Below, piece after piece: positions 28,352 to 54,836 of a DNA stretch of 60,113 nucleotides. Source of the DNA: a virus (lineage: Duplodnaviria; Caudoviricetes); the IMG/VR virus record IMGVR_UViG_3300042466_000580, positions 1-60,113 of that record; one strand, given 5' to 3'. Each line of letters starts with the position of its first letter. The first letter of the stretch is position 1. A program made the translations under genes and the position numbers. The notes under the pieces are model-generated. The model searched no databases. It saw nothing but the letters and a program-made list of their open reading frames with translations, and was not told the DNA's origin.

Positions 28352-28547
28352 CTTGATTACCCTTGGCCCGCTTCTTACGCGCCCGGTAGTCCTTCATGTA
28401 GGCAGCCTTGGCAGCTAGGTGTTCCTTGTGAGCCACAGGGTCCATCCGCAGCACCCGCATCCGCTCATGGTAAGTCTCCCGATCAGACTCCCGGTGACGA
28501 TCCTTCGTGATCTGATCAAAAACCGGACTGTTCTTCGGCCTGCCCAT
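28341..28547 (-). CDS. Small basic protein
   Basis: MGRPKNS...; GGAG RBS; resembles the divergent neighbour. Confidence 0.65.
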   Translation of the reverse strand: MGRPKNSPVFDQITKDRHRESDRETYHERMRVLRMDPVAHKEHLAAKAAYMKDYRARKKRAKGNQAGT

Positions 28548-28696
28548 GAACGTGTCTCCTAATGGGTGTAATCGAACCGCCCTGATTACAAACACCTTCA
28601 GAGAGGCGGGCAATCCTTTGGACAAGCAATGGACAAGTGACTTGTCTACTGTCCACTGACCATTGCCCGCTGGTGTACTCACTGGATACTCAGGGC

Positions 28697-29113
28697 ATGA
28701 GCAAGTCCAACACTCAGAAGGTGCGTGAGTACAGAGAGCGGCTCAAGGCAGACCCAGAGAGGTGGGCTGCATATCGGGCAAAGCAGTCTGGCTACCAACG
28801 CACCTGCCGACAGAAAGGCAGCGTGAGTACACCAGTGAGTACACCAAGGAAGCCAACCCAGGAGGAACGTGCGGCATTGCTGGCTGCGTTCGATGAGCCT
28901 GCCCCGTCAGTAGCGCACCTCGGCGGCAAACACGCAGCCCCAGCCACCGTCTACCACGGCATCCCACCTGACGCACTCATCAAGCAATACCAAGAACACC
29001 ACGCCAAGCAGCTTCCCGTGCCCCTAGCCGATCACCCCTTCATCAAAGCCCTCCAAGAGAGACTGCCATGCACCCTAGTCAAGGAACTGCCCCCCAAGGA
29101 GAAACCGAAGTGA
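28697..29113 (+). CDS. Basic hypothetical protein
   Basis: MSKSNTQKVREYRERLKADPERW...; follows TTGCCC-N16-GATACT. Confidence 0.65.
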   Translation: MSKSNTQKVREYRERLKADPERWAAYRAKQSGYQRTCRQKGSVSTPVSTPRKPTQEERAALLAAFDEPAPSVAHLGGKHAAPATVYHGIPPDALIKQYQEHHAKQLPVPLADHPFIKALQERLPCTLVKELPPKEKPK

Positions 29114-29379: not shown

Positions 29380-29504
29380 CCTCCGCAATCCTGCAAACCT
29401 GTTCCGTAGTGCTGGTAGTGAGCATCACCGCGATGGTGGCCACAGGTAGCTTCTGCATGGTGTGCATGATGATCCGGGTTCTTGTGGGGAAAGACACAGA
29501 CTGA
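29376..29504 (+). CDS. Small hydrophobic protein (42 aa)
   Basis: ATGA overlap; manual translation MTSAILQTCSVVLVVSITAMVATGSFCMVCMMIRVLVGKDTD. Confidence 0.45.
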   Translation: MTSAILQTCSVVLVVSITAMVATGSFCMVCMMIRVLVGKDTD

Positions 29505-29520
29505 CTGGTTTCTGGCAGGG

Positions 29521-29787
29521 AGGGGTGTAATCCAGTTCTGGGATGGGGAAAAAGTCCGGGGGGGGAACTAACAGATAGGTGCGGGGGCGCGGGGGGGCTC
29601 GGGGGCCGCACACGCGATCACACGCCCGCGTTTCTTCGCCCGTGCGGGGATAGCCGCGAGCCTCCGCAAGCCCGCAGAACCGCAGCCACGGGCCTTGGCG
29701 GGCATTCCAGCGGGCGGGCGCGAGGGACCGCAGGGGAATCGTTGCCCCGTGGAACACTGTGGCAAGTTTTCGGCAGATTACACCCCT
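29521..29787. repeat. 12-bp inverted repeat AGGGGTGTAATC flanking a G-run-rich non-coding tract
   Basis: 29521-29532 is the exact reverse complement of 29776-29787. Confidence 0.7.
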
Positions 29788-29920
29788 TTCGGCTGACTAT
29801 CATCACCACCCCGATCATCATGCCCATCATTGTCGGCATGGTTTTCTGCCCGGTATCTGGCATGGTTTGGCTGGTATCGGCCAGACCATGATCGGAATCG
29901 GCCATCGTGCTTGGGTGCCT

Positions 29921-30028
29921 GCGCGGTGCTTTCCTGGGCTTGCCCGTGCGGTTCCTCATGGGCCTGTGCGGTGTCTTCCCCGGTTGGGTGTGCGGTGTCT
30001 TTCGTGCCCTCTCGCGTGCGCTGTCTTC
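29921..30028 (+). repeat. Five degenerate direct repeats, consensus GTGCGGTGTCTT
   Basis: Copies start at 29921, 29946, 29966, 29990 and 30016. Confidence 0.6.
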
Positions 30029-30044
30029 GTGTGTGTGTGCGCCT

Positions 30045-30079
30045 GGAATCTCCGGAGGAGATTTCGCCCTGTTGGTTGG
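30045..30079 (+). repeat. CGGAG-hairpin + CCCTGTTGG element, copy 1
   Basis: GGAATCTC-CGGAG-GAGATTTC-GCCCTGTTGGTTGG. Confidence 0.85.
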
Positions 30080-30134
30080 TGTCGGCAATCGACCACTCCG
30101 GTCGGTGCGGCAACCACAATCGGGGAGCGATGCA

Positions 30135-30479
30135 ATGCGGATCATTGAGCAACGGCTATGCGATGCGGTGAGAGCGGGGCGACCATTTCGGTCTGGCAAC
30201 ACTGTGGCCCGGGTCATGGTGACGGGTGGCTTTCGGGTGGAACTGCACGGGAATGCGATTGCTTGGGCGGCGGGGCGAAAGCCTGACGGGACGTTCCACG
30301 GTGTGACCATCGACCACTGTGGGTGGAAGACTGCGACCACCAAAAGCCGGATCAATGCCCTTCTGAGCGGCATCGGCATCAACAAGCGGGTCTATCAACG
30401 CGACGGGGCTTGGTTCATTTCCGACTTCGGCCTGCGGGGGCATTCGGACACTCCATTCGACCGCTATCACACGCTGTAG
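30135..30479 (+). CDS. Early hypothetical protein
   Basis: MRIIEQRL...ELHGNAIA...CGWKTATTKSRINALL; GGAG RBS. Confidence 0.8.
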   Translation: MRIIEQRLCDAVRAGRPFRSGNTVARVMVTGGFRVELHGNAIAWAAGRKPDGTFHGVTIDHCGWKTATTKSRINALLSGIGINKRVYQRDGAWFISDFGLRGHSDTPFDRYHTL

Positions 30480-30491
30480 TCACGCCCGCCT

Positions 30492-30524
30492 ACTCCACGG
30501 AGTGGAGTTCGCCCTGTTGGTTGG
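30492..30524 (+). repeat. CGGAG-hairpin element, copy 2
   Basis: ACTCCA-CGGAG-TGGAGT-TCGCCCTGTTGGTTGG. Confidence 0.85.
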
Positions 30525-30559
30525 CATCACCCCGAATTGGCCGATGGGGTTACTCGGCT

Positions 30560-30602
30560 CCCCCGGTGGATCACGTTGATTCACCGGGGGTTTTCTTTTC
30601 TT
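30560..30602 (+). terminator. Intrinsic terminator
   Basis: CCCCCGGTGGATC/GATTCACCGGGGG stem followed by TTTTCTTTTCTT. Confidence 0.75.
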
Positions 30603-30620
30603 CACGCAAAGGGATCACGC

Positions 30621-30860
30621 ATGTACCACGACATCATCACTGACGATCAGGACATCATCGGCACGGTCGAAATCTTCAAGTTCGACGGTGTGCGGGTTTG
30701 CGAGGGCGATTGCTGGGCTGACGAAGACGGCGAAACCCTCCCCGCCGGTTGGTACTGGTGGACCTGCGTCCCCGGTTGCCTGCCCGATTCTGACCCATTC
30801 GGCCCCTTCGCCACGAAGACGAAAGCAATGGACGCCGCGGAGCGTTCCTATCTGGACTGA
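30621..30860 (+). CDS. Early hypothetical protein
   Basis: 'GWYWWTCVPGCLPDSDPFGPF'; RBS present. Confidence 0.75.
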   Translation: MYHDIITDDQDIIGTVEIFKFDGVRVCEGDCWADEDGETLPAGWYWWTCVPGCLPDSDPFGPFATKTKAMDAAERSYLD

Positions 30861-30869
30861 CGCCCGCAT

Positions 30870-30903
30870 GACTCTCCGGAGGAGAGTTCACCCTGTTGGA
30901 TGG
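30870..30903 (+). repeat. CGGAG-hairpin element, copy 3
   Basis: GACTCTC-CGGAG-GAGAGTT-CACCCTGTTGGATGG. Confidence 0.85.
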
Positions 30904-30905
30904 TG

Positions 30906-30954
30906 GCGGTTGGCTGACGGAAGCCTTTCCCCGGTTCGACTCCGGGGCACCGCA
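30906..30954 (+). ncRNA. tRNA-like element lacking an anticodon arm
   Basis: GCGGT/ACCGC closing stem; GGCT-GACGGA-AGCC arm; CCCCGG-TTCGACT-CCGGGG T-arm. Confidence 0.55.
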
Positions 30955-30991
30955 CTGGTTACGGGTTCGATTACACACTGAGGGCACCATC

Positions 30992-31297
30992 ATGGGCAAA
31001 ATCACGCTTGATACCGACGTTTGCGGCGGGGCTTACTGCCTCATCGTCAATGACGATGGTTCGGACATTCTCATTCAGTCCGATTGGGACTTGCCAGGGG
31101 TTGCTTCCACGTTTGGGTGGAGCGTTCGGGATGTGAAAACGCCGGGACGGGACTGCGACCACCACGGGACTGACGGCACGGTGGATTGCCCAGAGTGCGG
31201 GCTGAAAGCCGGGACATTCATCAGCGAAGCTGGCGACTGGATCAACAGTAACGACGGTGCGTCCGTTGATGACCCGGGCTATTTCGATGGCGAGTAA
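30992..31297 (+). CDS. Early hypothetical protein (Cys/His motif)
   Basis: MGKITLD...CDHHGTDGTVDCPECG. Confidence 0.75.
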   Translation: MGKITLDTDVCGGAYCLIVNDDGSDILIQSDWDLPGVASTFGWSVRDVKTPGRDCDHHGTDGTVDCPECGLKAGTFISEAGDWINSNDGASVDDPGYFDGE

Positions 31298-31300
31298 CCA

Positions 31301-31353
31301 AGCCGAAACCGGGGAAACCCGGTCTGTCCGTAATGCGGGCACTGAAGATGGCT
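31301..31353 (+). ncRNA. Hammerhead ribozyme, type II (extra U after A9)
   Basis: AGCC-GAAA-CCGGG(GAAA)CCCGG-TC^-TGTCCG(TAATG)CGGGCA-CTGAAGA-T-GGCT; predicted cleavage after C31324. Confidence 0.85.
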
Positions 31354-31376
31354 ACACACACACAAGGGGTATCACA

Positions 31377-31784
31377 ATGGCTGAAACGCTGACGATTGGC
31401 GACGTTACCATCACGGTCTGCGGGCAGGATCGGGATTACGAGGGCCGCACTTGCTACGAGGTGTCGATTGCCTTCCCAGAGGGCTATTCCTACACCGACA
31501 AGCAGGGGGAAACGCAGTTTATCGACCGGGGTTTTATTCACCGGGAACGTGACCTGCGATCTGGCTGCCAAGGCGGGACTGAGCGGGAGGGGATGGAAAG
31601 CCTGCTTTCCTTCCTGACGGCGGCGGCGGAAGCCTACCGCTACACCATGCGGACGGGCCGCGAGAGCGACAACAGCGACCTTTTCCCGGCCTTCATCGTG
31701 GAATGGGCACACCAAAACGACAGCGAAATTCAGTCTGTCCAGTGCATGTACGAGTTCGACCGCTCGGGTGAAAGCCTCGCGTAA
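31377..31784 (+). CDS. Early hypothetical protein
   Basis: MAETLTIGD...; AAGGGG RBS. Confidence 0.75.
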   Translation: MAETLTIGDVTITVCGQDRDYEGRTCYEVSIAFPEGYSYTDKQGETQFIDRGFIHRERDLRSGCQGGTEREGMESLLSFLTAAAEAYRYTMRTGRESDNSDLFPAFIVEWAHQNDSEIQSVQCMYEFDRSGESLA

Positions 31785-31815
31785 TCAACGGAGTTGATTT
31801 CACCCTGTTGGATGG
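31783..31815 (+). repeat. CGGAG-hairpin element, copy 4
   Basis: AATCAA-CGGAG-TTGATT-TCACCCTGTTGGATGG. Confidence 0.85.
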
Positions 31816-31816
31816 C

Positions 31817-31863
31817 AGCGACGTTGGTTGACCGCAAAGTGGGTTCGATTCCCACTTGTCGCT
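31817..31863 (+). ncRNA. tRNA-like element lacking an anticodon arm
   Basis: 7-bp AGCGACG/TGTCGCT acceptor-like stem; short TTG..CAA arm; AGTGGG-TTCGATT-CCCACT T-arm. Confidence 0.6.
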
Positions 31864-31897
31864 CTGGTTCGATTGTTCACACCCTTGGAGAGCGACC

Positions 31898-32278
31898 ATG
31901 ACAAAGCGAGAAGAAATCGACGCGGTGAAAGCGTTCGTTGCCAGCCTGCCCCGGGATTCCTATGCCCGGGATGCACTGGAGCCGTTCCTGATGGAGTTTG
32001 AGAAGGGTGTCTATGCGGACTACGTTCCGACCGTTCACGACTCATGGCGGCACCGCCGGGAGGCTGACGAGGAAGCCGGTCAAGCGAGGAAGGTGCTGGC
32101 TGCGGTCAAGGAAGAAATCAAGCAGGCCAAAGCACGACTGCGTAATTGCTGCGTCGGCATGGGCACCCTGCTCGACCGGGCGAAGCAACTTCAGCACTCC
32201 ATCGACAACACGGCGGAAACCCTGAAGGGGCTGCACGGTGCGGCGGATGCACTCAACGAACGGATCGCCAGCATATAG
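31898..32278 (+). CDS. Early coiled-coil hypothetical protein
   Basis: MTKREEIDAV...; GGAG RBS. Confidence 0.75.
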   Translation: MTKREEIDAVKAFVASLPRDSYARDALEPFLMEFEKGVYADYVPTVHDSWRHRREADEEAGQARKVLAAVKEEIKQAKARLRNCCVGMGTLLDRAKQLQHSIDNTAETLKGLHGAADALNERIASI

Positions 32279-32327
32279 CGAAACCGGGGAAACCCGGTCT
32301 GTGGGTGTGACCCACACTGATGAGCTA
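32276..32327 (+). ncRNA. Hammerhead ribozyme, type II (canonical core)
   Basis: TAGC-GAAA-CCGGG(GAAA)CCCGG-TC^-TGTGGG(TGTGA)CCCACA-CTGATGA-GCTA; predicted cleavage after C32299. Confidence 0.92.
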
Positions 32328-32345
32328 CACACAAAAGGATCAACC

Positions 32346-32738
32346 ATGAAATTCGACCGGAAATTCGCCCAGTTTGTATGCGTTGGGGACACGATCAAGG
32401 CAGACGTTACTGACAAGTTGCAACTCGTTGCCACTCTCGTCTTCGACAGCGACTGCGACCCGCAAAACGAGGGCTGGTATGACGAGCCAGACGTTGAGCG
32501 GTGGAAGAATGACGAGTGGCATTTCGTGGGGGTTGTGTTGTCCGTTCAATCGCACGACGGCACGATCAAGAGGAACCTCGGCTCCCTCTGGGGAAACGAG
32601 GCCAACCTCAGGGACAATAACGACCACCTGACAGACGTTGCCAATGAGTTGATTGACGAGCGGGAAATCGTGGCCGCACTGCGGGAGATTTACGAGCCCG
32701 TAACCCGGGCGATTAAGACTCTCACACACACAGCCTAA
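32346..32738 (+). CDS. Early acidic hypothetical protein
   Basis: MKFDRKF...WKNDEWHFVGVVL...SLWG; AAGGA RBS. Confidence 0.75.
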   Translation: MKFDRKFAQFVCVGDTIKADVTDKLQLVATLVFDSDCDPQNEGWYDEPDVERWKNDEWHFVGVVLSVQSHDGTIKRNLGSLWGNEANLRDNNDHLTDVANELIDEREIVAALREIYEPVTRAIKTLTHTA

Positions 32739-32765
32739 CGGAGTTAGGCACGACCCTCTGGTTGG
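32733..32765 (+). repeat. CGGAG-hairpin element, copy 5 (variant)
   Basis: GCCTAA-CGGAG-TTAGGC-ACGACCCTCTGGTTGG. Confidence 0.75.
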
Positions 32766-32781
32766 TATCGGTTGGATGACG

Positions 32782-32813
32782 GCCCCGGCAATTTCGCCGG
32801 GGCTTTTCTTTTT
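32782..32813 (+). terminator. Intrinsic terminator
   Basis: GCCCCGGC-AATTTC-GCCGGGGC followed by TTTTCTTTTT. Confidence 0.8.
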
Positions 32814-32826
32814 CACGGGGCACACC

Positions 32827-33105
32827 ATGCAAACGCAATGGGAATGGACACGGGTCAACAACGACACGAACGGCAATGGCCGGTTCGTCTGCCACTTCCT
32901 GCCACTGGTGCGGGACATGGCTGGCAAGGGATGGGGCACCAACAGCTTGTACAAGCTGGCCTGCAAGCGGGCCAACAAGCTGGGCGGTCGCAAGTACCAC
33001 ACGAAATCGTTCGGTGGTGGGGTGGTTTTCCAAGCGTATTCCAGCACGTTGCCGGACTTGGAGCGACGGATTCTTGAACTGCAAACCGAAGGGGGTGACG
33101 CATGA
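32827..33105 (+). CDS. Early hypothetical phage protein
   Basis: 'RVNNDTNGNGRFVCHFL...GGRKYHTKSFGGGVVFQ'. Confidence 0.75.
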   Translation: MQTQWEWTRVNNDTNGNGRFVCHFLPLVRDMAGKGWGTNSLYKLACKRANKLGGRKYHTKSFGGGVVFQAYSSTLPDLERRILELQTEGGDA

Positions 33106-33608
33106 GCAGCATGGCATATGACGAACTGACCGAAATCGCCGGGGAGTATGGGCTGACACTCACGTTTGAGTTCATGCCACAGGTCTTCCCCGAAGACACC
33201 AAGTCCACGGACATGAGCATGAAATGGCTGGTGACTGTGCGGCATCGGGGCAACCCGTTGCTGGCCACCACCTACACCCAAGGGGTGGCTCACTGCCCGT
33301 CCTATTCGGGCGTCAAGTGGGGACGGGGCCTGACCGTTGCCCAGCTTGAGAACCTGCGGCGTGACTGTGCCAGCCCGCAGCCCAAGGGTGGGCCGAAGGA
33401 ACCGCTGACCGCTCTGTGGTGCATCGCTTCCGACTGCCAGACGGTGATGGACGGTGGATCGTTTGAGGGATGGGCCCGTGAGCTTGGCTATGACACGGAC
33501 TCCCGCAAGGCGGAAGGCATCTATGACGAGTGCGTTCGCCAGTACCTGAAGCTGAAGCAGGCCATCGGTGACGAGGGCATCCTGACTCTGGCTGCGGTCG
33601 AACTGTGA
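33102..33608 (+). CDS. Early hypothetical protein
   Basis: 'SFEGWARELGYDTDSRKAE.IY..C'; ATGA overlap. Confidence 0.8.
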   Translation: MSSMAYDELTEIAGEYGLTLTFEFMPQVFPEDTKSTDMSMKWLVTVRHRGNPLLATTYTQGVAHCPSYSGVKWGRGLTVAQLENLRRDCASPQPKGGPKEPLTALWCIASDCQTVMDGGSFEGWARELGYDTDSRKAEGIYDECVRQYLKLKQAIGDEGILTLAAVEL

Positions 33609-33690
33609 CGGCACCCTGCCACCCCCTCTGTTCAGAGCAGAGGGGAGAGTTGGGGATCGTTTGAGTTACACACACGAAAGGAAACGCACG

Positions 33691-33870
33691 ATGATTCTCG
33701 GGAAAAGCAGTGAACTGCGGAACTACAGGGGCTTTGTTTATGACGGCGGGCACGGCGGGCCGTATTGGATTGTCGGCTGCTTGTCGGCGGGCACGTTCAG
33801 CAACCTCGCTGACCTTCGCCGGTACGTTGACGAGAACCTTTGGGTCTGCCCAAGAAATGCTGGCGGCTGA
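33691..33870 (+). CDS. Small early protein
   Basis: AAGGA RBS; MILGKSSE... Confidence 0.6.
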   Translation: MILGKSSELRNYRGFVYDGGHGGPYWIVGCLSAGTFSNLADLRRYVDENLWVCPRNAGG

Positions 33871-33905
33871 CTGAACACACATCCCATTACACGACGAGGT
33901 GACGA

Positions 33906-34124
33906 ATGACCCTGAAAACGACGGTCGAACTGACGAGGGGTGAGCTTGGCATCCTTGCCGCTGCCACCCTTGGCGAGTGGACAGAGGCGGATAGGTTGCG
34001 GATAGATGGCAACCGCGACGGTTGGTATGACAAGAAAGCGAAGGAGCGGGTGGAAGTCCACCTGTACGAGACTGACAAGCTGTTCAACAAACTTAGGAAC
34101 CTAATCAAGGAGATGGACGCATGA
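33906..34124 (+). CDS. Small early protein
   Basis: GAGGTG RBS; 72 aa. Confidence 0.7.
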   Translation: MTLKTTVELTRGELGILAAATLGEWTEADRLRIDGNRDGWYDKKAKERVEVHLYETDKLFNKLRNLIKEMDA

Positions 34125-34405
34125 GCAAGCACACACCGGGACCGTGGGATACTGGGGCGGGCGACATGACTGTTCGCCTCAACCGTCTGGCCGATGAGAT
34201 TGCCAATCGGTTTGGCGACCACTCTGACCGTCAGGTCGAGGGCAATGCTGCCCTGCTCTTGGCTGCCCCCGAGCTACTGGCTGCGCTGAAGGAGGTGGCA
34301 GAAGGTTGTGAGTCCAGACTGCGAAAGGGCAAGGACAGCGGCGATCTGGAAACGCTGCGTCTGTGCCGTGCCGCAATCAACAAGGCAGAAGGGAGGGGTG
34401 AGTGA
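34121..34405 (+). CDS. Phage protein of the 'HTPGPW...NA.L.AAAPELL' type
   Basis: Motifs at both ends are typical of a widespread phage hypothetical family. Confidence 0.8.
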   Translation: MSKHTPGPWDTGAGDMTVRLNRLADEIANRFGDHSDRQVEGNAALLLAAPELLAALKEVAEGCESRLRKGKDSGDLETLRLCRAAINKAEGRGE

Positions 34406-34475
34406 GCGACAACCTATGGGCCTTGCTAGTGGCGGGCCTGATGGTGCTGCACCTCATGTGTAGTGAGTGACACAC

Positions 34476-34509
34476 GACTGTTCGGAGAACAGTTCACCCT
34501 GTTGGTTGG
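34476..34509 (+). repeat. CGGAG-hairpin element, copy 6
   Basis: GACTGTT-CGGAG-AACAGTT-CACCCTGTTGGTTGG. Confidence 0.85.
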
Positions 34510-34515
34510 TATCGA

Positions 34516-34548
34516 CCCTCGGCAATTCCGCCGGGGGTTTTTCTTTTT
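34516..34548 (+). terminator. Intrinsic terminator
   Basis: CCCTCGGC-AATTCC-GCCGGGGG followed by TTTTTCTTTTT. Confidence 0.8.
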
Positions 34549-34565
34549 CACAAAGGAACTTTGAC

Positions 34566-34979
34566 ATGGCGACGAGCGACATCATTGCGGCGATGGCAGC
34601 GGGCACCACGGCGACGGCAACCAAGACGGTGGGCAAGGGTAAGCGGGCGGTCGAGGTGACCATCACCCGTACTGCCCCGGCGGTGGTGGTGGTGGACGAG
34701 ACTGTGACCGACGAGCCGGTCAGCTACACCGGCAAGCTGCCAGTGGATGAGGGCAAGGTGGTAACCGAAATCCTCCCCGGCTTGTCTCTTGTCCGGTACT
34801 CGCGTGGCTACACGGCACTGCGGGTGAAGGGCAAGGCATGGGGTGGTAACAAGGTGACGATTGGCAGGCCGCTCTGGCGGGAAGACTTGCTCGCCCTTGG
34901 CCGTGCCCTCCTGGCGGATGCAGAGGGAGCCCTGTCCTACGATGAGGCCCACGGCAAAGAAGAAGTTGTGCCGTTCTGA
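34566..34979 (+). CDS. Hypothetical protein
   Basis: MATSDII...; AAGGA RBS; acidic C-terminus ending PF. Confidence 0.75.
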   Translation: MATSDIIAAMAAGTTATATKTVGKGKRAVEVTITRTAPAVVVVDETVTDEPVSYTGKLPVDEGKVVTEILPGLSLVRYSRGYTALRVKGKAWGGNKVTIGRPLWREDLLALGRALLADAEGALSYDEAHGKEEVVPF

Positions 34980-35003
34980 ACACATACCACAAGGAGATTC
35001 GAC

Positions 35004-35495
35004 ATGGCAGCGTTAGACCCAAGGCCGGTGAAGGAAAGGATTCTGTCCAGCATCTCCAAGCCTGACGGGGAGGGCGGGTGCTGGGTTTGGCAGGGAGTAA
35101 CACTTCCCCGTGGGTACGGTCAGATCAGCGTCCACTCTCAAAGGCATTACGCCCATCGACTGTCTTACGAGACTTTTGTTGGGCCTATCCCTGACGGCTT
35201 GGACATCATGCACCTGTGCGACAACCCGTCTTGCGTCAACCCGGCTCATCTGACACCGGGTACACGCAAGAGAAACATGAATGACGCATCTTTGAAGGGA
35301 CGAGTCCCGCATGGGGAGAGGCACTGGGGTGCAAAGCTGACAGAAGACAAAGCGCGTGAGTTGATTGCGGTCAGGGATCGGGACGGTCTGTCTTACAGAA
35401 ATCTGGCCAAGCTGTTTGGCATCAGCACGATGCAGGCTTGCCGGATATGCACGGGAAAGAGGTGGGCTGGTCTTTCAAGAAAGGAGGACGAGTAA
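35004..35495 (+). CDS. HNH homing endonuclease
   Basis: 'CWVWQG...GYGQI...AHRLSY...MHLCDNPSCVNPAHL..GT...N' plus HTH. Confidence 0.9.
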   Translation: MAALDPRPVKERILSSISKPDGEGGCWVWQGVTLPRGYGQISVHSQRHYAHRLSYETFVGPIPDGLDIMHLCDNPSCVNPAHLTPGTRKRNMNDASLKGRVPHGERHWGAKLTEDKARELIAVRDRDGLSYRNLAKLFGISTMQACRICTGKRWAGLSRKEDE

Positions 35496-35704
35496 TGATC
35501 CGATTCGATTCCCCCATCCTCACCGCATCACAAGCGGCGAAGGTGGCGGGCTGTTCGGACAACTACATGCGGCGGTTGCTGGATGGCGGCAAGGCCACCG
35601 GGTACTACACCGGAACGGTCTGGCTGATGGAACTGAACGAGGCACTGAGGGTTCGCGGTGAACTTACGGTGCGGTCAATAGGCAAACGAAAGGCAGGCAA
35701 GTGA
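35495..35704 (+). CDS. Excisionase-like helix-turn-helix protein
   Basis: 'ILTASQAAKVAGCSDNYMRRLLDGG...G.VWL'. Confidence 0.7.
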   Translation: MIRFDSPILTASQAAKVAGCSDNYMRRLLDGGKATGYYTGTVWLMELNEALRVRGELTVRSIGKRKAGK

Positions 35705-36048
35705 TGAACGATAGATACAGGATGTGTCACATGACGCCGAAGGTAAGCGTGGAGTTGGAGTCCGGGGACACAGCGGAGCTTACGCTCGGTGACTGCATGA
35801 GGGTGATAAACCAACTCATGCACCACAAGTTCCTACAGTTTGACGTTGACCTGCCGCGAACGCTGATGGGCAGGGATATTGCAGAGTGGGAACAGGTCGG
35901 TGTTCACGGGACTGGTGAGTCTTGCTGGCAGTACGAGGACGATCTCGACAACCTGACCATCACTCTCCAGCTTGACGAGATCACTGCGATTGGTGGCCTG
36001 CCCCGGGAGGAGTTCCGTAACATCCCTAAAGAGAAGGAGGTGGAGTGA
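35701..36048 (+). CDS. Hypothetical protein
   Basis: Coupled ORF, 115 aa. Confidence 0.65.
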   Translation: MMNDRYRMCHMTPKVSVELESGDTAELTLGDCMRVINQLMHHKFLQFDVDLPRTLMGRDIAEWEQVGVHGTGESCWQYEDDLDNLTITLQLDEITAIGGLPREEFRNIPKEKEVE

Positions 36049-36368
36049 TGGCAAAGAAGCCAAGCCGGGGCCGTGAGTACAAGGCGCAGCGTGAGTTCCT
36101 CATGCTGCAAGTACAGCGGGCTTTGATCCGGGGAATCTTGCGGCTGCATGACAAGGGCTGGACCCCCGACGAGATCGCAGCTTCGGTCGATGTGATGATG
36201 AAGGCCATCGGTGACACGATGGTCAAAGACCTTGCAACCAACGGGGAGATTGACCCCAAGACCTACGAGTTCACGATCCGCAGCGTGGAGTCGGTGATCA
36301 GCGCGGACAAGTATGCGGAAACCGTGGCCGATTGCTTTGAGGAAATGAAACGAAAGGAAGGTAAGTGA
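36045..36368 (+). CDS. Hypothetical protein
   Basis: Coupled ORF, 107 aa. Confidence 0.65.
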   Translation: MMAKKPSRGREYKAQREFLMLQVQRALIRGILRLHDKGWTPDEIAASVDVMMKAIGDTMVKDLATNGEIDPKTYEFTIRSVESVISADKYAETVADCFEEMKRKEGK

Positions 36369-36685
36369 TGAGAACGACGATGACTCTGGTGCTGGCACTG
36401 GTAGCTGGCACAGCGTTCGGTCAGTACCCCTATGCCATACCACCGGCATGGGGATACATGAATAAGAACGAGGCCATGAGGCAGCAACAGTTTGAGAATC
36501 AGCGGTGGCAACGTGAGCAGCGGGAGAAGGAAGCGAACTACCTATGGGGCGGCGACCCTATGGAGTACGCAGAGCGAGGTGCCCGCATTCGGATGATGAA
36601 GGAACAGACCCGGACCCTGCGGTTGCAGAATGACTACCGCGAGAAGACGGGGAACTTCCTCATCGACAACAATCCGTTCAGGTAG
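36365..36685 (+). CDS. Secreted hypothetical protein
   Basis: Signal peptide MRTTMTLVLALVAGTAFG. Confidence 0.65.
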   Translation: MMRTTMTLVLALVAGTAFGQYPYAIPPAWGYMNKNEAMRQQQFENQRWQREQREKEANYLWGGDPMEYAERGARIRMMKEQTRTLRLQNDYREKTGNFLIDNNPFR

Positions 36686-36714
36686 TTGACGTATACGCTT
36701 GTATACTGTATCGT
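36686..36714 (+). promoter_or_regulatory. Sigma70-like promoter TTGACG-N17-TATCGT
   Basis: Intergenic, near-consensus; predicted start falls just before hairpin copy 7. Confidence 0.55.
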
Positions 36715-36725
36715 GTGTGTGCGTT

Positions 36726-36756
36726 ACTGTTCGGAGAACAGTTCGCCCTGTTGGTT
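36726..36756 (+). repeat. CGGAG-hairpin element, copy 7
   Basis: ACTGTT-CGGAG-AACAGT-TCGCCCTGTTGGTT. Confidence 0.85.
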
Positions 36757-36775
36757 AGTAGCAACGATGGACTTG

Positions 36776-36813
36776 GCCCCGGCAGCACTTCGCTGTCCGG
36801 GGCTTTTTGTTTT
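36776..36813 (+). terminator. Intrinsic terminator
   Basis: GCCCCGGCAGC/GCTGTCCGGGGC stem followed by TTTTTGTTTT. Confidence 0.75.
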
Positions 36814-36833
36814 CACACCCAAAGGAATTGACC

Positions 36834-37703
36834 ATGACCCCTCTGAATAGTTCGATTGTCGAGCGTGTCCGTAACTTCTTTCCCGATGTGACCAAGCAGT
36901 CGCTGTTCTCCCCGGACATGCGGCCCACTCCCCACTGTGGCCTGTTCAGAAATGACACGGGAGCTTGCTTCGGTCCTGCGGTCAGTGCCAACTACGAGCT
37001 TCACACCACCGATGACATCTGTGCCTTGGTGGAAGCGAGCGAGCCGGTGCTGGGTGAGTGCGGCGACGTTCAGTTGGGCTTCCGAGATGGACACTATGTC
37101 TCCATCCAGCCCACCAAGGAGCATCTGTTTACCGTTCACAAGAACGACACGGTGTTCCCCCGGCTGATCGTGACGGCCCGCTATGGCGAGGCTTTCACTG
37201 CCACCATCGGGTTGTTCCGGGTGGTGTGCGGCAACCTCGCCATCTTCCAGAAGGTGGCGGGAACCTCGGTGCGGATCAGGCACACCTACTCCCTCCGCTC
37301 CAAGATGGAAGACCTCATCGAAGACTTCCACTCGCTGCGGAATGGGGTGGGCAACCTTGAGGTGGCGATCAAGGAGATGGCTGACCGCAAGGTGCGGCTG
37401 GCTGATTTCCTCGACGGCATCTACGGCACCCCGCTTGAGAGTGCAACGGAGCGGTCGATCACCATGCACCGCAACCGCACTGAGCAGATCGTGCGGCGGC
37501 TGATGCGTGAGCAGGTTGCATTGGGTGAGCCCACTGCAATCAACGAGGTCAGTGCATGGGCCGCGTTCAATGCGGTACAGGGATTCATCCAGCATGACTC
37601 CCGCCGCAAGGGCAAGCCGGGTGATTTCGACCGGGCAATCATGGCTCTGTCGGACGCGAAGGTTCTTCAGGCCCAGCACTTGGCCATGACGATGGCGGTC
37701 TAG
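36834..37703 (+). CDS. DUF932 family protein
   Basis: 'GLFRVVCGN...VRIRHT' and 'SAWAAFNAVQGFIQH' motifs. Confidence 0.85.
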   Translation: MTPLNSSIVERVRNFFPDVTKQSLFSPDMRPTPHCGLFRNDTGACFGPAVSANYELHTTDDICALVEASEPVLGECGDVQLGFRDGHYVSIQPTKEHLFTVHKNDTVFPRLIVTARYGEAFTATIGLFRVVCGNLAIFQKVAGTSVRIRHTYSLRSKMEDLIEDFHSLRNGVGNLEVAIKEMADRKVRLADFLDGIYGTPLESATERSITMHRNRTEQIVRRLMREQVALGEPTAINEVSAWAAFNAVQGFIQHDSRRKGKPGDFDRAIMALSDAKVLQAQHLAMTMAV

Positions 37704-37768
37704 TCACAAGGCAGTGCGGGGCGGGGAGTGCGTTGCTCCTCGCCCCGCTGGCCACAAGGGGAACGAAC

Positions 37769-38077
37769 ATGAACAGGCTGACCGAATACCGAATGAGCGA
37801 GCGACGGCTACTGAAACCGGGGACACGATTCACCGCGAAGGGCGGGCCGGTCTACCAGTTAGCCGATGGGACTGCCGTGCCACTGGCATCACGCGGACCC
37901 TTTGAGTTCATCGCCTACTGTCAGGCGGATGGGTACGACTTTATCCAGGCACGGGATCGGGACGGGTGTAGTGCGGTGCTGCACCTGACAGGGGAGAGGA
38001 AGACTGCCAGCCCTGAGATTATCGGGCGACCTTACACGTTGGGGAAGGTGTTTCGTAAACAACCAAGGAGGAGGTGA
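37769..38077 (+). CDS. Hypothetical protein
   Basis: AAGGGG RBS; MNRLTEYR... Confidence 0.7.
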   Translation: MNRLTEYRMSERRLLKPGTRFTAKGGPVYQLADGTAVPLASRGPFEFIAYCQADGYDFIQARDRDGCSAVLHLTGERKTASPEIIGRPYTLGKVFRKQPRRR

Positions 38078-38702: not shown

Positions 38703-38933
38703 ATGACCACCGTAACCCTGACTGAGCGGCAGGAAGAAATCCTGCGGTACATTGCCAGCCACATTGACATCAATGGGTTTCAACCCAGCTTCAGAGAGAT
38801 GATGGCACGGTTCAAGATCAGGAGCCCCAACGGAATCAAGGGGCACCTTCAAGCACTGGAACGTAAGGGAATCATTGCGTCGAATTACCAAACCTCACGG
38901 GCAATTTCATTTAACTGGAAGGAGTGGCTGTAA
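38703..38933 (+). CDS. LexA-type DNA-binding-domain-only protein
   Basis: 'LTERQEEILRYI...GFQPSFRE....F.I.SPNG...HLQALERKG.I......SRAI'; no peptidase domain. Confidence 0.9.
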   Translation: MTTVTLTERQEEILRYIASHIDINGFQPSFREMMARFKIRSPNGIKGHLQALERKGIIASNYQTSRAISFNWKEWL

Positions 38934-39802
38934 TGCCCACATGCTTTCTTTATTCCAGGGTGTCAACAGAAGATCAAAATTTGTCGCCCGCTTGGCAAGC
39001 CGAAGTCTGCAAGAACCACTACGAGTTCAGCCTAAAGTCAAAGGGGTACGCACTGCACCCCGAAGTCTTTCATGACCACGGCGTGTCGGCCTATCATGTT
39101 GACTGGCGTGACAGGCCGCGAGCCCGTGAGATGTTCAACCTCGTCAAACCGGGTGACATCATCGTGGTGGCAAAGCAAGATCGTGCCTTCCGATCCAGCC
39201 GAGACAGAGAAAATACTTTCTACTTTCTCAACAAGGTTGGCATCGACATCGTGATACTTGATGCGATGCTCGACACTAGCACTGCCGCCGGGAAGTTTGC
39301 TGCGTCCGTGATAGCAGCGCAGTGCCAGTTTGAGTCTGACGTTAAGAGCGAAAGACAGAAGGCAGCCCACTCCATCCGGCGGCAGCGGAAGACACCGATG
39401 AAAAAGTTGCCACCCCCAGGCTGGAAGCTGGACAAGATGATTGACGAGCTAGTCCCTGACTGGGATGAGCGGCGGCTGATGGCCACGGTCTATGACCAGC
39501 GTGACAAGGGCTATCGCTCGGTGGCGGAAGCGGTGCGGGTACTCAAGGCGGCGGGCACACTGCGGGCCAATGGCTGCAAGTACACGCAGTCATGGTTCAC
39601 CAGGGCCTACTCTGTCTTCCTGAGGAACTTCCCTTGCGAAGGCTACCAATGCCACTGCCGGTCGGAGCATAAGGCAAAGGCTCACATGAAGGTGGGCAAG
39701 CTCGTCAAGAAACGGAAGGACCGGATTGCAAAGCTAGTCCGGCCTCACGACGTAGCTTCCCCAGCTTCGCAGCAAGTAGCTTCGCAGCCTGCCGGGTACT
39801 GA
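38933..39802 (+). CDS. Serine recombinase (resolvase/invertase catalytic domain with C-terminal extension)
   Basis: YSRVST catalytic motif; 'DRAFRS'; 'LDTSTAAGK'; 'PPPGWK'. Confidence 0.9.
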   Translation: MPTCFLYSRVSTEDQNLSPAWQAEVCKNHYEFSLKSKGYALHPEVFHDHGVSAYHVDWRDRPRAREMFNLVKPGDIIVVAKQDRAFRSSRDRENTFYFLNKVGIDIVILDAMLDTSTAAGKFAASVIAAQCQFESDVKSERQKAAHSIRRQRKTPMKKLPPPGWKLDKMIDELVPDWDERRLMATVYDQRDKGYRSVAEAVRVLKAAGTLRANGCKYTQSWFTRAYSVFLRNFPCEGYQCHCRSEHKAKAHMKVGKLVKKRKDRIAKLVRPHDVASPASQQVASQPAGY

Positions 39803-46552: not shown

Positions 46553-46767
46553 CAGACACCTTCCTTTCTGCGCCGCTCCTCACGTTCTGCTTCAGCCTGC
46601 AACCGACCGTACTTCCCGACCAACTCCTCCCTGAGAATCGTGTACTCGGGGGGCGCGTCGATCCCGATCCGCACGGCACCACCTTGGGTGATGTGCGTGA
46701 CCGTGATCTTGATGTTCCCCGGTTCGATAACGATGGTCTGATTGACCCGGCGTCCTAGTACCAACAT
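46552..46767 (-). CDS. csrA: Carbon storage regulator (RNA-binding translational regulator)
   Basis: MLVLGRRVNQTIVI...I.ITV...VRIGIDAP....ILREEL. Confidence 0.93.
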   Translation of the reverse strand: MLVLGRRVNQTIVIEPGNIKITVTHITQGGAVRIGIDAPPEYTILREELVGKYGRLQAEAEREERRRKEGV

Positions 46768-47324
46768 CACTCACCTCCGTGTGTAATTGGTTCGATTCCC
46801 AACGCTCCATCCAGCACCGATGACCGCTTTGACGGGCGACCACGCCGCTTCTTCACTGCAACATCTGGCTGGCTGCCATCGACAGGTCTGTCTCCTTCTT
46901 GTTGGCGAACCTCCCCACCCACCGGGTTGACCATTCGTGCGTTGTCCACTGGTCTTGAACCCACTTGATCCGCTCGGCCAGATCGTCCGGCACTGGCCTC
47001 ATCAACCCGCTCCTGGCTGACCGGCGGTACTGGGTGTATTGGCTCCGCAGTTCGTGGAGCCTGAGGTCCGGCATCCGCTTCCTGACCTCTAGGAAGTCCA
47101 GCCCCTGCGACACCAGTTCCGACAGAAGCACCTCGTCCTCGTCCGTCATCTCTCTGTAGCCAGCCATCGAAGAAGTTCTCCGCTTGTGCATCCAACGCCG
47201 ACTGCATCGTTCGCAACTCCGCGAACAGCAACGGCAAGACTTTCATTAAGACGTTGGGCAATTCCTGAAGGGTGGCCTTGCACAGGTAACCTTCAAGCTG
47301 GTCTATGTCGGCTTTAGACAGCAC
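46767..47324 (-). CDS. Hypothetical protein with C-terminal KRRGRP motif
   Basis: GGAGG RBS with GTG at 47324; stop overlaps the csrA start. Confidence 0.5.
   Translation of the reverse strand: MLSKADIDQLEGYLCKATLQELPNVLMKVLPLLFAELRTMQSALDAQAENFFDGWLQRDDGRGRGASVGTGVAGAGLPRGQEADAGPQAPRTAEPIHPVPPVSQERVDEASAGRSGRADQVGSRPVDNARMVNPVGGEVRQQEGDRPVDGSQPDVAVKKRRGRPSKRSSVLDGALGIEPITHGGE
46853..47149 (-). CDS. Nested hypothetical protein (possible HTH)
   Basis: MTDEDEVLLSELVSQG...; globular-looking composition, in a different frame inside the previous ORF. Confidence 0.45.
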   Translation of the reverse strand: MTDEDEVLLSELVSQGLDFLEVRKRMPDLRLHELRSQYTQYRRSARSGLMRPVPDDLAERIKWVQDQWTTHEWSTRWVGRFANKKETDLSMAASQMLQ

Positions 47325-48995: not shown

Positions 48996-49851
48996 GGGCT
49001 CTCAAAAGTCCTTTCTTGAAGTGGCGAAACAACACGCAGCCGTCAATGGAGTCGGCAAGGAATACCGGGACCACCTCTTGCGGACGGCGAGAAAGCTGTC
49101 GGCAGCCGGAATAGATTCCGTGGCTACGGTCAATGCTGATCGCATCAACAAACTCCTCGACTCCGTTCAAGGCTCGCCCTCAACAGTGGCCGCGAATCGA
49201 AGGATGGTTTGCACCTTGATTCGTGCCGCCGTGGGGCAACGTGCTGGAAAGATAATCGACGGCATCCGAAGGGTCAAGTGTTCGGTTCCGCCTCCAGTGG
49301 CATGGTCGGAAAAAGAATTGGAGAAGCTGTTGGCGGCTGCCGATGGCATGAAGAGAACACTTTCTTCAGGTTGCCCAGCCTCCCTGTTTTTCCGCGCTTG
49401 GATTCTGACCGGCTACTACACCGGGCTAAGATTTTCGGATCAGTTAAACCTGAAGGTGAATCAGCTTCGCGGCGACCGGCTGCACCATGTCATCAGCAAG
49501 ACATCGCAGCCGTTCACAAAGGTTCTCAGTCAGGAGGTGGTGGCTCTCCTGAGGCAACTGGCAGACCACCCCGCCAACAAGGACGGCAAGACGTTCTTCT
49601 CATGGGCACTGAAGGAACACTGGCTGCGGGTCTGGTTCCGCCGACTGTGCAAGCAGGCTGGGCTGGAGGGCACACCCAAGTGGCTGAGAAGGAGCGGGGC
49701 CACAGCTTGCGAGGCTCAGAGTCCGGGGTCAGCCAGCCGCTATCTCGCGCACCGCTCCCCGGAATTGGCCCTCAAATACTACGTTGATGCCAGCTTGCTG
49801 CCGGATGCCATGCCCACCCCGCCACGGCTACAGCACAAACGGGTTTCCTAG
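48994..49851 (+). CDS. Tyrosine recombinase/integrase
   Basis: YTGLRFSD (R), SKT (K), KWLRRSGAT, LAH, KYY; GGAGG RBS before ATG 48994. Confidence 0.85.
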   Translation: MGSQKSFLEVAKQHAAVNGVGKEYRDHLLRTARKLSAAGIDSVATVNADRINKLLDSVQGSPSTVAANRRMVCTLIRAAVGQRAGKIIDGIRRVKCSVPPPVAWSEKELEKLLAAADGMKRTLSSGCPASLFFRAWILTGYYTGLRFSDQLNLKVNQLRGDRLHHVISKTSQPFTKVLSQEVVALLRQLADHPANKDGKTFFSWALKEHWLRVWFRRLCKQAGLEGTPKWLRRSGATACEAQSPGSASRYLAHRSPELALKYYVDASLLPDAMPTPPRLQHKRVS

Positions 49852-52800: not shown

Positions 52801-53466
52801 TTCGATACCCTCTCGGGCTGCGTCTGGGTTGGCCTGGGCCTCGACCAGTTCTCTGAGCGTGGTGTTCCTGCCTGCCGTGCGACTGCCGACAATCGGGCGG
52901 GACAACAGGTCATCATCGGTCAGGTCTGCGATGCCCTTGCCGAAGTTGTCATGCAGGGAGCGGGTGGCGTTACGGGCGTAACCCATGTCGCCAAGCCGGT
53001 CGATGTCCCTGGCACCACGGGCAACGTCATCGACAAGATTGCGACCGGCAACTCGGGTCACATCGTCTGCGATACCAGCCGCCCTGGCCGCGAGCGTAGC
53101 CTTGCTGGCAGCACCCGCACCAAAGGAAACAAGATTCAGGGGGTCAGTCCCAGCGTCGAAAGCGAACTCTGCGATTGGCCTGCCCCAGCCACCCCAGGCA
53201 TCCTCGCTCGGACGAATGCCATAGGCATCCATCGTTTCGCCAGTCTCTGATCCAGAGAACAGGGGCCGTCCCATCAAGAGGTCATTCTTGAGGGAGTTGG
53301 CCCCGTTCAGCAACCCAAGCAGCTTGCTTGAGGTGGGGCGGGTTCCGCGAGTCAGACCCTCCAGTGCCTCATCCCGCTGCCATGCGGGGAGGTCTGCCAG
53401 TGCAGGCGTGTCATCTGCTATTGGCAAAAACGGATTGCTGTCGAGGAGCGGGTTGCGCCATGCCAT
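49828..53466 (-). CDS. Large internal virion / DNA ejection protein (putative)
   Basis: 1212 aa, helical and Ala/Gly-rich; C-terminal 'DYGSLT.FEK....FVPFWSY' pattern; at the end of the virion operon. Confidence 0.7.
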   Translation of the reverse strand: MAWRNPLLDSNPFLPIADDTPALADLPAWQRDEALEGLTRGTRPTSSKLLGLLNGANSLKNDLLMGRPLFSGSETGETMDAYGIRPSEDAWGGWGRPIAEFAFDAGTDPLNLVSFGAGAASKATLAARAAGIADDVTRVAGRNLVDDVARGARDIDRLGDMGYARNATRSLHDNFGKGIADLTDDDLLSRPIVGSRTAGRNTTLRELVEAQANPDAAREGIEQWLQKNHRMGYADVANDRLYNDVGLWLPKVLGGPVGAQIPDAFGGRALGAGSAALFDRAGQALRWSKLGRYGVSASNIFGDNVQGATEEGQQILSKSLVRSDRAATEAASRWTTRMARELAERSPAAFGDPQVSTAVRNVIEGTANAADQALVTSNNLDDFVTQWRQTADDYITRSREAGIGSAELNDPYGTKYFPRGVDDGVFGRNAPNMGGKAGKDWSVMTGDQLARDSAYQVPGGTQTINELSRDAAVTGAANDAIAADHILQTVNSRVGAGPAYTRAQATKLARDIRSMSPQALESGRGLFDRHFLEDASRYVRGRERAIGRSRVLYDALGSSANLENYLQVPGGSHDSMLRTLTDLDLRTTNTNGVLQGAQQQILDRINARLAGTGQTLTAADLANVSIDQRIVDRFNRISDYYAMPEVQGVLGKFMDDLTNMWKSSILTWPARFARDWFSGAISNTIEVGNVNDLRNGYAAAKYLLQGQTDRLGPLVAQMPRYKTLAETNMDAAIAAFRDDLGASGILGGRRIEDVGSRWTGSQTGESIRDAVLPGASPVTTVGYQVGDALSGRTPLSPNNAAYSEFYRGGLRSYTDPLRRFAGAINPFGGENFSDYIADRQLTDPLLRWGAKLGDTTDTINRVGGYAGLMFQGVSVPEASRRIMAAQVDYGSLTRFEKGFIKSFVPFWSYNSRIGAYVAQKIWNRPGGAYTNIALRAPDAVVNQTDADNPDDSYTPKQIKESVGFSLEGLRGVPGLGSVIDALAPETPGVNSFLNSIDVPGRSLINMFNIKQGLDGSVKYGDSAYNTFLDTTSQLMHPIIRDGVELLSGRNLHTGKSLNEFEPTIQKLGRAAGVDPYSTPDYLLKGSNMLLDFVPHAPRVLQLTNRLMDDERVPNLSARLGQNAFNMLTGSKITNISEDAARMDASRELTDMLSDSPAIKKFESRYIPEEMLPYANPDDVLLYRLDRQMRKEARAAKKAQAQAVGDLGNPFVL

Positions 53467-54833: not shown

Positions 54834-54836
54834 GCG

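Follow-up and report, generated by a model that had tools for sequence, protein, structure and literature searches.

tRNA-like elements without an anticodon arm ahead of early phage genes: candidate cutting marks whose place a hammerhead ribozyme can take

Why should a phage place an RNA that resembles half a tRNA directly ahead of a protein-coding gene? The question is raised by IMG/VR virus record IMGVR_UViG_3300042466_000580, a complete record of 60,113 base pairs (bp) that was analysed over its whole length and is referred to here as the window. Its head, portal, terminase and tail genes and a recombination/helicase block all lie on the - strand, and small genes, mostly ORFans, form a + strand block at ~30.1-39.8 kb. 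Two tRNA-like elements, E1 and E2, sit within the first 2 kb of this block, on the sense strand of the 5' untranslated regions (UTRs) of two of its genes. We propose that they act in cis as tRNA-punctuation marks at which the transcript of the early + strand operon is cut, a predicted role that we hold to be probable by a modest measure. The argument rests on the fold of the elements, its conservation and covariation among related phages, their constant position and polarity, and the finding that a self-cleaving ribozyme occupies the same site in a relative.

In E1 and E2, an acceptor-like stem of 5-7 bp is stacked on a T-arm of 6-7 bp (Table 1). The acceptor stem abuts the T stem without a gap, giving 12-13 bp in total (13 copies of the family described below), and the T stem itself has 6-7 bp rather than the 5 of a tRNA. 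The T-loop is of the tRNA type, with 7 nucleotides (nt) closed by a G-C pair, so that a TTCRANN loop and acceptor stacking, as used to recognize tRNA, are both present. The 5' acceptor strand is separated from the T-arm by only 14-17 nt, with no anticodon arm. CCA is not encoded in any copy examined, the 3' tail of E1 and E2 being CTGG. A GG is always present in the loop of the small hairpin or, in E2, in the linker. In the tRNA elbow it is a GG that the T-loop contacts, and a like docking, of the T-loop on the GG-containing hairpin loop, is predicted as probable here. Reading and folding of the sequence thus bore out a preliminary description of this DNA in its coordinates, acceptor-like stem and T-arm and in the lack of both anticodon arm and CCA. 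The short arm that it had also drawn stands as a 4-bp hairpin in E1 and is reduced in E2 to a weak hairpin of just 3 bp.

No full tRNA had been expected at these sites, and ARAGORN called 0 genes in the window and 0 in seven loci of relatives. Rfam searches at gathering scores gave 0 matches for E1 and E2. RF00005 gave no match at E <= 10, and the sole match within the tRNA clan was to tRNA-Sec (18.5 bits, E 7.3). With no anticodon arm and no match to the tRNA model or by ARAGORN, the elements are not tRNAs.

In order to follow the elements beyond the window, we compared it with five related IMG/VR genomes (G001-G005), which were found by pattern and protein-guided scans, and with two metagenome fragments (L094 and L095) found by a protein-guided scan of metagenome contigs. 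A covariance model, R1, built from 11 distinct sequences, gave 15 matches of at least 56 bits in 163,769 bases, the next best match scoring 14.4 bits; across the family, true copies score 43.8-78.1 bits as against noise of at most 14.4 bits. The family comprises 21 copies, 14 of them distinct, which fall into six types (E1-E6) with differing stem sequences. The window carries 2 copies, and G001-G005 carry 2, 3, 3, 3 and 4, respectively.

The fold is conserved across these types. In a MAFFT alignment, 94.4% of the cells are paired, compared with 78.2% in shuffled alignments, and 10 of 17 pairs have changed on both sides (reached by 0 of 500 shuffles). When the 14 distinct sequences were fitted to the model, 94.2% of 224 cells were paired, compared with 75.6% after shuffling (0 of 500 shuffles reach this value), and compensatory double changes were present at 11 of the 17 pairs (reached in 2 of 500 shuffles). 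The T stem is 100% paired in this model-fitted alignment, and its overall pairing falls to 42-57% once the 3' partners are displaced by one to three columns. Minimum-free-energy (MFE) folds, which are independent of the model, returned the same three-way junction in all seven sequences folded, with modest z-scores of -1.5 to -3.0. The G.U pairs are seen in the + strand reading, which fits an RNA made from the sense strand. The T-loop reads TTCGAYN (TCCGATT in one type) and its closing G-C pair is invariant; five types carry the T-arm motif as GGTTCGAYKCC, and E5 carries it as GGTCCGATTCC. GGTTCGAYT is found 6 times where 0.81 would be expected, a count attained in 0 of 100 shuffles. In 7 records the core of E1 (small hairpin plus T-stem) is the same, while the linker and the neighbouring genes vary. 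Conservation of structure in relatives, whose absence together with an absence of processing was to refute the preliminary description, was found.

Position and polarity are equally constant, since each of the 21 copies is on the sense strand and has a start codon 33-40 nt downstream. The trailer that follows each element has a fixed order, with CTG(G/T) (18 of 19 copies), one to two degenerate GTTCGRKT units, CACAC and a Shine-Dalgarno sequence. Upstream, the base at -1 is always a pyrimidine (19 of 19 copies), and all copies but one are preceded by a module in which a 7-bp hairpin, its GGA or GAA triloop closed by C:G, is joined to a leader of 13-17 nt. The exception, at 1709-1763 of locus L018 (G002, type E5), is the single family member that lacks the hairpin module. 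The window has two exact copies of CCCTGTTGGATGG, each 1 nt ahead of E1 or E2. In the preliminary description, a variant of this leader preceded both elements, and CTGGTT and a second GGTTCGATT followed them; this holds in the window, and in relatives the elements are not tied to that variant, the leader reading GGTTGG, GATTGG, CATTGG or GGTATT, and the second unit becomes the degenerate GTTCGRKT repeat in one or two copies. The genes downstream differ within a type: E1, E3 and E4 each precede three gene families and E2 precedes two. The tRNA-like element is a portable part that stands ahead of varied cargo.

What bears most directly on the function of this part is the element that can replace it. 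A permissive Rfam scan of the early block detected two type II hammerhead ribozymes in the window, in spacers that have no hairpin module, each followed by ACACAC and a Shine-Dalgarno sequence. Like matches were obtained in G001, G003 (two), G004, G005 and fragment L094, and none in G002. In the window and relatives, these matches to RF02276 score 27.5-32.3 bits (E 0.003-0.23), all below the gathering score of 37. In an alignment of seven sequences, however, the core (CUGANGA, GAAA, GUC) is invariant except at one position that is known to vary, compensatory changes are present at 5 of 17 pairs, and stem I covaries. The core aligns to the Rfam consensus, and the three helices, with stem II open, are those of a type II hammerhead. 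Judged by these features, the hammerheads look active.

G001 and G002 share the end of one gene and the start of the next, and between the two lies a hammerhead in G001 and an E5 element in G002. Homology resumes at CACACAC, and it is this E5 slot that is devoid of the hairpin module. The family to which the downstream gene belongs has a hammerhead ahead of it in 5 of 7 loci (the window, G001, G004, G005 and L094) and a tRNA-like element in the other two (G002, and L095, there with the module). A self-cleaving RNA can take the place of the tRNA-like element. This exchange favours an RNA-cutting role over that of a decoy. The preliminary description had offered both, i.e., signals for processing by host nucleases or released ~50-nt tRNA mimics acting as decoys. 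The tRNA features that have been kept (acceptor/T stack, T-loop and GG loop), together with the hammerhead swap, give the former support that is indirect yet specific, and the latter has gained no support of its own. As a main role, a decoy is disfavoured because a ribozyme could not replace it; the swap nevertheless leaves room for a second role of the excised RNA.

Table 1. Positions of the tRNA-like elements, their flanking parts and other RNA features in the window
Feature	Positions	Strand	Remarks
E1, tRNA-like three-way junction	30905-30954	+	R1 74.6 bits; MFE fold; covariation
E1, acceptor strands	30905-30911 / 30948-30954	+	5 Watson-Crick pairs, flanking G.A and U.C mismatches
E1, small hairpin	30912-30925	+	4 bp, 6-nt loop with GG; 3-nt linker next
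E1, T-arm	30929-30947 (loop 30935-30941)	+	6 bp, 7-nt loop TTCGACT
E2, tRNA-like element	31817-31863	+	R1 57.1 bits; MFE fold
E2, acceptor strands	31817-31823 / 31857-31863	+	Acceptor and T stems give 13 stacked pairs
E2, small hairpin	31825-31834	+	Weak, 3 bp only
E2, T-arm	31838-31856 (loop 31844-31850)	+	Loop TTCGATT
Leader of E1 (TCA, CCCTGTTGGATGG, T)	30888-30904	+	Conserved
Leader of E2	31800-31816	+	Conserved
Trailer of E1 (CTGG; GGTTCGATT at 30964-30972; CACAC; Shine-Dalgarno)	30955-30991	+	ATG of gene for 101 amino acids (aa) at 30992
Trailer of E2 (CTGG; GGTTCGATT at 31866-31874; CACAC; Shine-Dalgarno)	31864-31897	+	ATG of 126-aa gene at 31898
Module hairpin before E1	30871-30887	+	7-bp stem, GGA triloop closed by C:G; starts 8 nt past upstream stop codon
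Module hairpin before E2	31783-31799	+	Overlaps TAA stop codon of upstream gene
Type II hammerhead between two early genes	31301-31360	+	RF02276 27.5 bits, E 0.024
Second type II hammerhead, next intergenic spacer	32276-32333	+	RF02276 30.8 bits, E 0.0032
Terminator-like GC hairpins with T-runs	30560-30600, 32781-32814, 34514-34549, 36777-36812	+	~20-50 nt past modules

How such a mark might work can be set out in a few steps. The tRNA features that the elements retain are those through which RNase P, RNase Z and the CCA-adding enzyme are known to be recruited, all three being readers of the acceptor/T half. We infer the cleavages, the enzymes and the benefit as follows. Once transcribed, the element would fold into a tRNA-like L-shape without an anticodon arm, with the acceptor stacked on the T-arm. 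Host RNase P would then cut at the 5' base of the acceptor stem, at 30904/30905 in E1 and 31816/31817 in E2, thereby freeing an upstream RNA that ends in a stable hairpin and leader. A 3' nuclease would cut at or near the conserved C-U-G-K tail; this would be RNase Z, acting past the discriminator, or else RNase E, acting within the GUUCG-rich trailer. The early gene would thus keep an mRNA with a defined short 5' UTR, composed of CACAC and the Shine-Dalgarno sequence, that is independent of what lies upstream.

Several points weigh against this proposal. With regard to cleavage, no product has been seen: the sole RNA data set, metatranscriptome run X1, holds 6% of the sampled words of 29900-37900, and its contigs, 85-99% alike, lie on 30491-30594, 33606-33678, 34470-34511 and 36035-37704, so that E1 and E2 are not among the stretches covered. 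The stack is mostly 13 bp long as against the canonical 12, the first acceptor pair is a G.A mismatch in 5 of the 14 distinct sequences, and the contact of RNase P RNA with CCA would be missing in elements that have no CCA. Apart from the G002 copy noted above, every element starts 1 nt past the hairpin-plus-leader module; if this module is a promoter, RNase P would remove only ~15 nt and the benefit would be unclear. The swap, moreover, establishes equivalence of some function and not of which one, given that both parts place a structured RNA before the same 5' UTR. With regard to covariation, the events are few and come from six paralogous types and small variants in close relatives only, and the larger alignment, having been fitted to the model, leans towards it.

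The family is also narrow. A degenerate E1 pattern found 22 stretches in IMG/VR, of which 5 were real, from five related genomes, the rest being chance matches. A like pattern found 34 loci in bacterial and archaeal genomes and no member among them, the best R1 score being 24.8 bits for a partial match. No real match was obtained in 18 more distant phage records (5 of them at least 98% complete), whose terminases are ~51-53% or 91-96% identical; the sole match there, at 21.5 bits, lies in apparent coding sequence. Hammerhead II matches at E <= 0.1 were likewise absent from the 5 near-complete or complete distant genomes, and a blastn search with 29500-33500 found no match among GenBank phages.

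The evidence was next weighed against other explanations. We regard it as rather unlikely that the elements remain uncleaved and serve in cis as structures of the 5' UTR, be it as stabilizers or insulators against a 5' exonuclease or RNase E entry or as an aid to translation, without any tRNA-processing enzyme. Their constant place, 33-40 nt before the start codon on the sense strand, would suit such a role; so would the observations that a self-cleaved hammerhead at the same slot likewise leaves a hairpin at the 5' end and that terminator-like GC hairpins hold the equivalent place after four other modules. However, a plain hairpin would suffice for this purpose, so that the 12-13 bp stack, the invariant T-loop of tRNA type and the GG loop are not accounted for, and the equivalent found at the same site is an RNA-cutting ribozyme.

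Somewhat less credence still can be given to a trans-acting mimic, in which the excised ~50-nt RNA, possibly CCA-tailed, would serve as decoy or as competitor. Its target would be some host factor that recognizes the acceptor/T half of tRNAs, for which a defence nuclease or transferase, RNase P and the CCA-adding enzyme are examples. The fold suits the CCA-adding enzyme and other readers of this half, the elements have as neighbours in the early region small ORFan genes of the kind typical of host take-over, each genome has two to four copies, and the E1 core stays identical in 7 records despite its varying linker and neighbours. Nevertheless, a decoy role does not predict replacement by a hammerhead at an orthologous site, and the stem sequences vary freely between types, leaving nothing sequence-specific beyond generic tRNA features. 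Action in trans and cutting are compatible and do not exclude one another. An extended form of the proposal, in which the cutting marks would be interchangeable cassettes (ribozyme or tRNA mimic) and the excised mini-tRNAs would be CCA-tailed and act in trans, for example by soaking up a host factor or a defence enzyme that reads the acceptor/T half, appears similarly doubtful.

It is improbable that the elements are signals at the level of transcription, i.e., attenuators or pause sites that, like the terminator-like hairpins, would be read through under control of the module. Four of the seven modules in the window have a GC hairpin and T-run within ~20-50 nt, and E1 and E2 are found in the same place after two others; yet no T-run follows the acceptor stem, where the trailer reads CTGGTT, one family member has no upstream module, and conservation of the T-loop would be left unexplained. 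Finally, there is very little to be said for relics or DNA-level features, namely phage tRNA genes decayed by loss of the anticodon arm or junctions of mosaic recombination, as might be suggested by the mosaic region, the several gene families that follow individual types (three each for E1, E3 and E4, two for E2) and a nearby HNH endonuclease gene, because compensatory changes keep three helices in six types, G.U pairs occur in the sense reading only, and the same deletion of the anticodon arm would have been needed in every type.

The proposed cutting marks have counterparts in known systems. In mitochondrial tRNA punctuation, tRNA-shaped elements between cistrons are cutting marks for RNase P and RNase Z; these marks are functional tRNAs, whereas the phage elements, without an anticodon arm, cannot decode. 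mascRNA and menRNA are small tRNA-like RNAs within longer transcripts; RNase P and RNase Z cut them out and thereby fix where the flanking RNA ends. They differ from the elements described here in belonging to vertebrate nuclear long non-coding RNAs and in having a cloverleaf with a short anticodon arm. One type, at 28461-28510 of G005, matched RF01684 (mascRNA-menRNA) at 32.8 bits and E 0.008, below the gathering score of 42.5; the other types gave no match at E <= 1 in the loci scanned, nor at E <= 10 in the window. The resemblance is not homology. In phage T7, promoters are paired with RNase III sites, so that a host endonuclease trims after the phage signal and yields uniform mRNA ends, and RNase P acts on non-tRNA phage RNAs, namely C4 of P1/P7 and CI of P4. 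The nuclease signal of T7 is, however, a long RNase III hairpin, and C4 and CI are regulatory RNAs and not intercistronic punctuation.

The t-elements of plant mitochondria were found through the motif GGTTCRANYCC, their ends coincide with the 5' and 3' termini of mRNAs, and they are thought to direct cuts by RNase P and RNase Z (Forner et al., 2007; PMC1920247, in part). The phage elements share with them a non-canonical tRNA-like fold and the GGTTCRANYCC motif within an mRNA precursor, although here the ends and cuts are predicted. The t-elements are organellar and derive from tRNA genes of a eukaryotic organelle genome; the phage elements, in contrast, belong to an early operon, come in several paralogous types, are mostly fused to the module and can be exchanged for a hammerhead. 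In prophages, hammerheads flank single genes, and it has been proposed that they divide long phage transcripts into mRNAs of gene length; the 2011 survey that described them left the purpose of phage intergenic hammerheads open (Perreault et al., 2011; PMC3088659, in part). The logic is the same, with small RNA-cutting elements placed between short phage genes; those hammerheads self-cleave, however, whereas the tRNA-like elements would need host enzymes. In the main text of that survey, tRNA appears in the reference list only and RNase P not at all (PMC3088659). A catalogue of ~8,500 candidate structured RNAs has been compiled from IMG/VR (PMC10690425, in part), and the tRNA-like examples presented there overlap ARAGORN calls, which the E1/E2 family does not. 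We found no description in the literature of anticodon-less tRNA-like punctuation in phage mRNAs, with the proviso that the supplements of PMC10690425 may list the motif.

If the elements are cut as proposed, bacteriophages would share the operon processing of mitochondria and t-elements, with tRNA-shaped punctuation that is read by host RNase P and RNase Z. The tRNA-like mark and the hammerhead would then be evolutionarily equivalent parts, and phage intergenic hammerheads would acquire a function. In addition, the elements would offer a compact (~50-nt) natural substrate of RNase P and RNase Z for studies of minimal recognition, as well as a natural counterpart to the ribozyme and tRNA insulators of synthetic operons. 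With the family defined through a covariance model and an orthologous swap, a few constructs would be enough to put the claim to a direct test.

The CGGAG hairpin module bears on E1 and E2 only with respect to the outcome of RNase P cleavage, i.e., removal of a ~15-nt leader or separation of cistrons. Seven modules are present on the + strand of the window, at 30047, 30492, 30871, 31783, 32733, 34477 and 36726. All loops in the window are GGA and those of relatives are GGA or GAA, with leaders that are specific to each genome. Among 43 copies of the hairpin (22 distinct), 153 of 154 stem pairs are Watson-Crick and one is G.U, and the stems covary. That G.U pairs are so rare, and that alternating purine-pyrimidine tracts lie upstream of the modules, hints at a role at the DNA level. 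The module may be a promoter, an antitermination signal, a processing signal or a protector of 3' ends.

A stem and triloop of this kind recall the promoter of the N4 virion RNA polymerase, which has a 5-7 bp stem and a purine-rich 3-nt loop closed by C:G, with the G-purine-A loop on the template strand and the start site on its 5' side (PMC4496689, in part). The module agrees in its stem and triloop; a promoter of the N4 type was rejected on account of the opposite polarity, the loop being on the sense strand and the conserved flank 3' of it. PHROGs, Pfam and PDB sequence searches found no phage RNA polymerase among the large open reading frames. Ahead of the last module, with 9-11 nt between them (11 nt in the window), is a sigma-70-like promoter on the + strand (TTGACG, 17 nt, TATCGT; 36686-36714) with a palindromic spacer, and its G002 counterpart (~5000-5030 of L018) is an even better match (TTGACA, 17 nt, TAGACT). 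Hairpin and leader would, at this site, form the 5' end of a transcript made by the host polymerase. The promoter lies ahead of the genes for the DUF932, LexA-like and serine recombinase proteins. Of the seven window modules, four are followed by a GC hairpin and T-run, two by E1 or E2 and one by a long hairpin. These terminator-like hairpins stand directly upstream of the ribosome binding site of the next gene, from which it follows that the downstream genes would need read-through or some other bypass.

Further observations were made on the sequences around the elements. Comparison of 29900-32400 with G001-G005, L094 and L095 showed the early region to be a mosaic of single-gene cassettes, in which a given tRNA-like type stands before different genes and a given gene behind different types. 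Several upstream genes that are unrelated to one another share their final stretch, GTGCGTAA, which runs into the hairpin, and in a metatranscriptome contig of a relative the likeness starts exactly at the start of a hairpin (30491). A pairing of leader with trailer that would lengthen the acceptor stem was considered and rejected; by eye it is merely G.U-rich, and it is not kept between types. Two further occurrences of GGTTCGATT proved not to be family members. The one at 46789 runs antisense to a - strand gene, opposite its 5' UTR; it is not a T-arm, and R1 gives it 10 bits. The one at 28570 (- strand) has no R1 match. Read on the - strand, 46755-46814 has the make-up of a 5' UTR, comprising CACAC, a Shine-Dalgarno sequence and ATG, indicating that the CACAC-Shine-Dalgarno leader serves - strand genes too.

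The HNH endonuclease gene lies at 35004-35495 (+), inside the early block, which ends with genes for a protein with a LexA-type DNA-binding domain (38703-38933, +) and a serine recombinase (38933-39802, +). Judged by these two gene products, a temperate or recombination-prone life style is suggested. After the tail genes, 49828-57614 (-) holds three large ORFan genes with products of 925, 455 and 1212 aa. For the 1212-aa protein, polyvalent-protein (LPD38/LPD3) clusters are nearest; the 925-aa protein is Pro/Gly-rich, with one invariant column and just 22 homologues in 1.8 billion representatives. The three products, none of them RNA polymerase-like, are probably ejected virion proteins. Lastly, in the stretch that separates the - strand late genes from the + strand early block, a motif of 12-15 nt, GTGAGTACACCA, is present in four copies at 28671-28846, two direct in tandem and two inverted, which may be operator or origin repeats.

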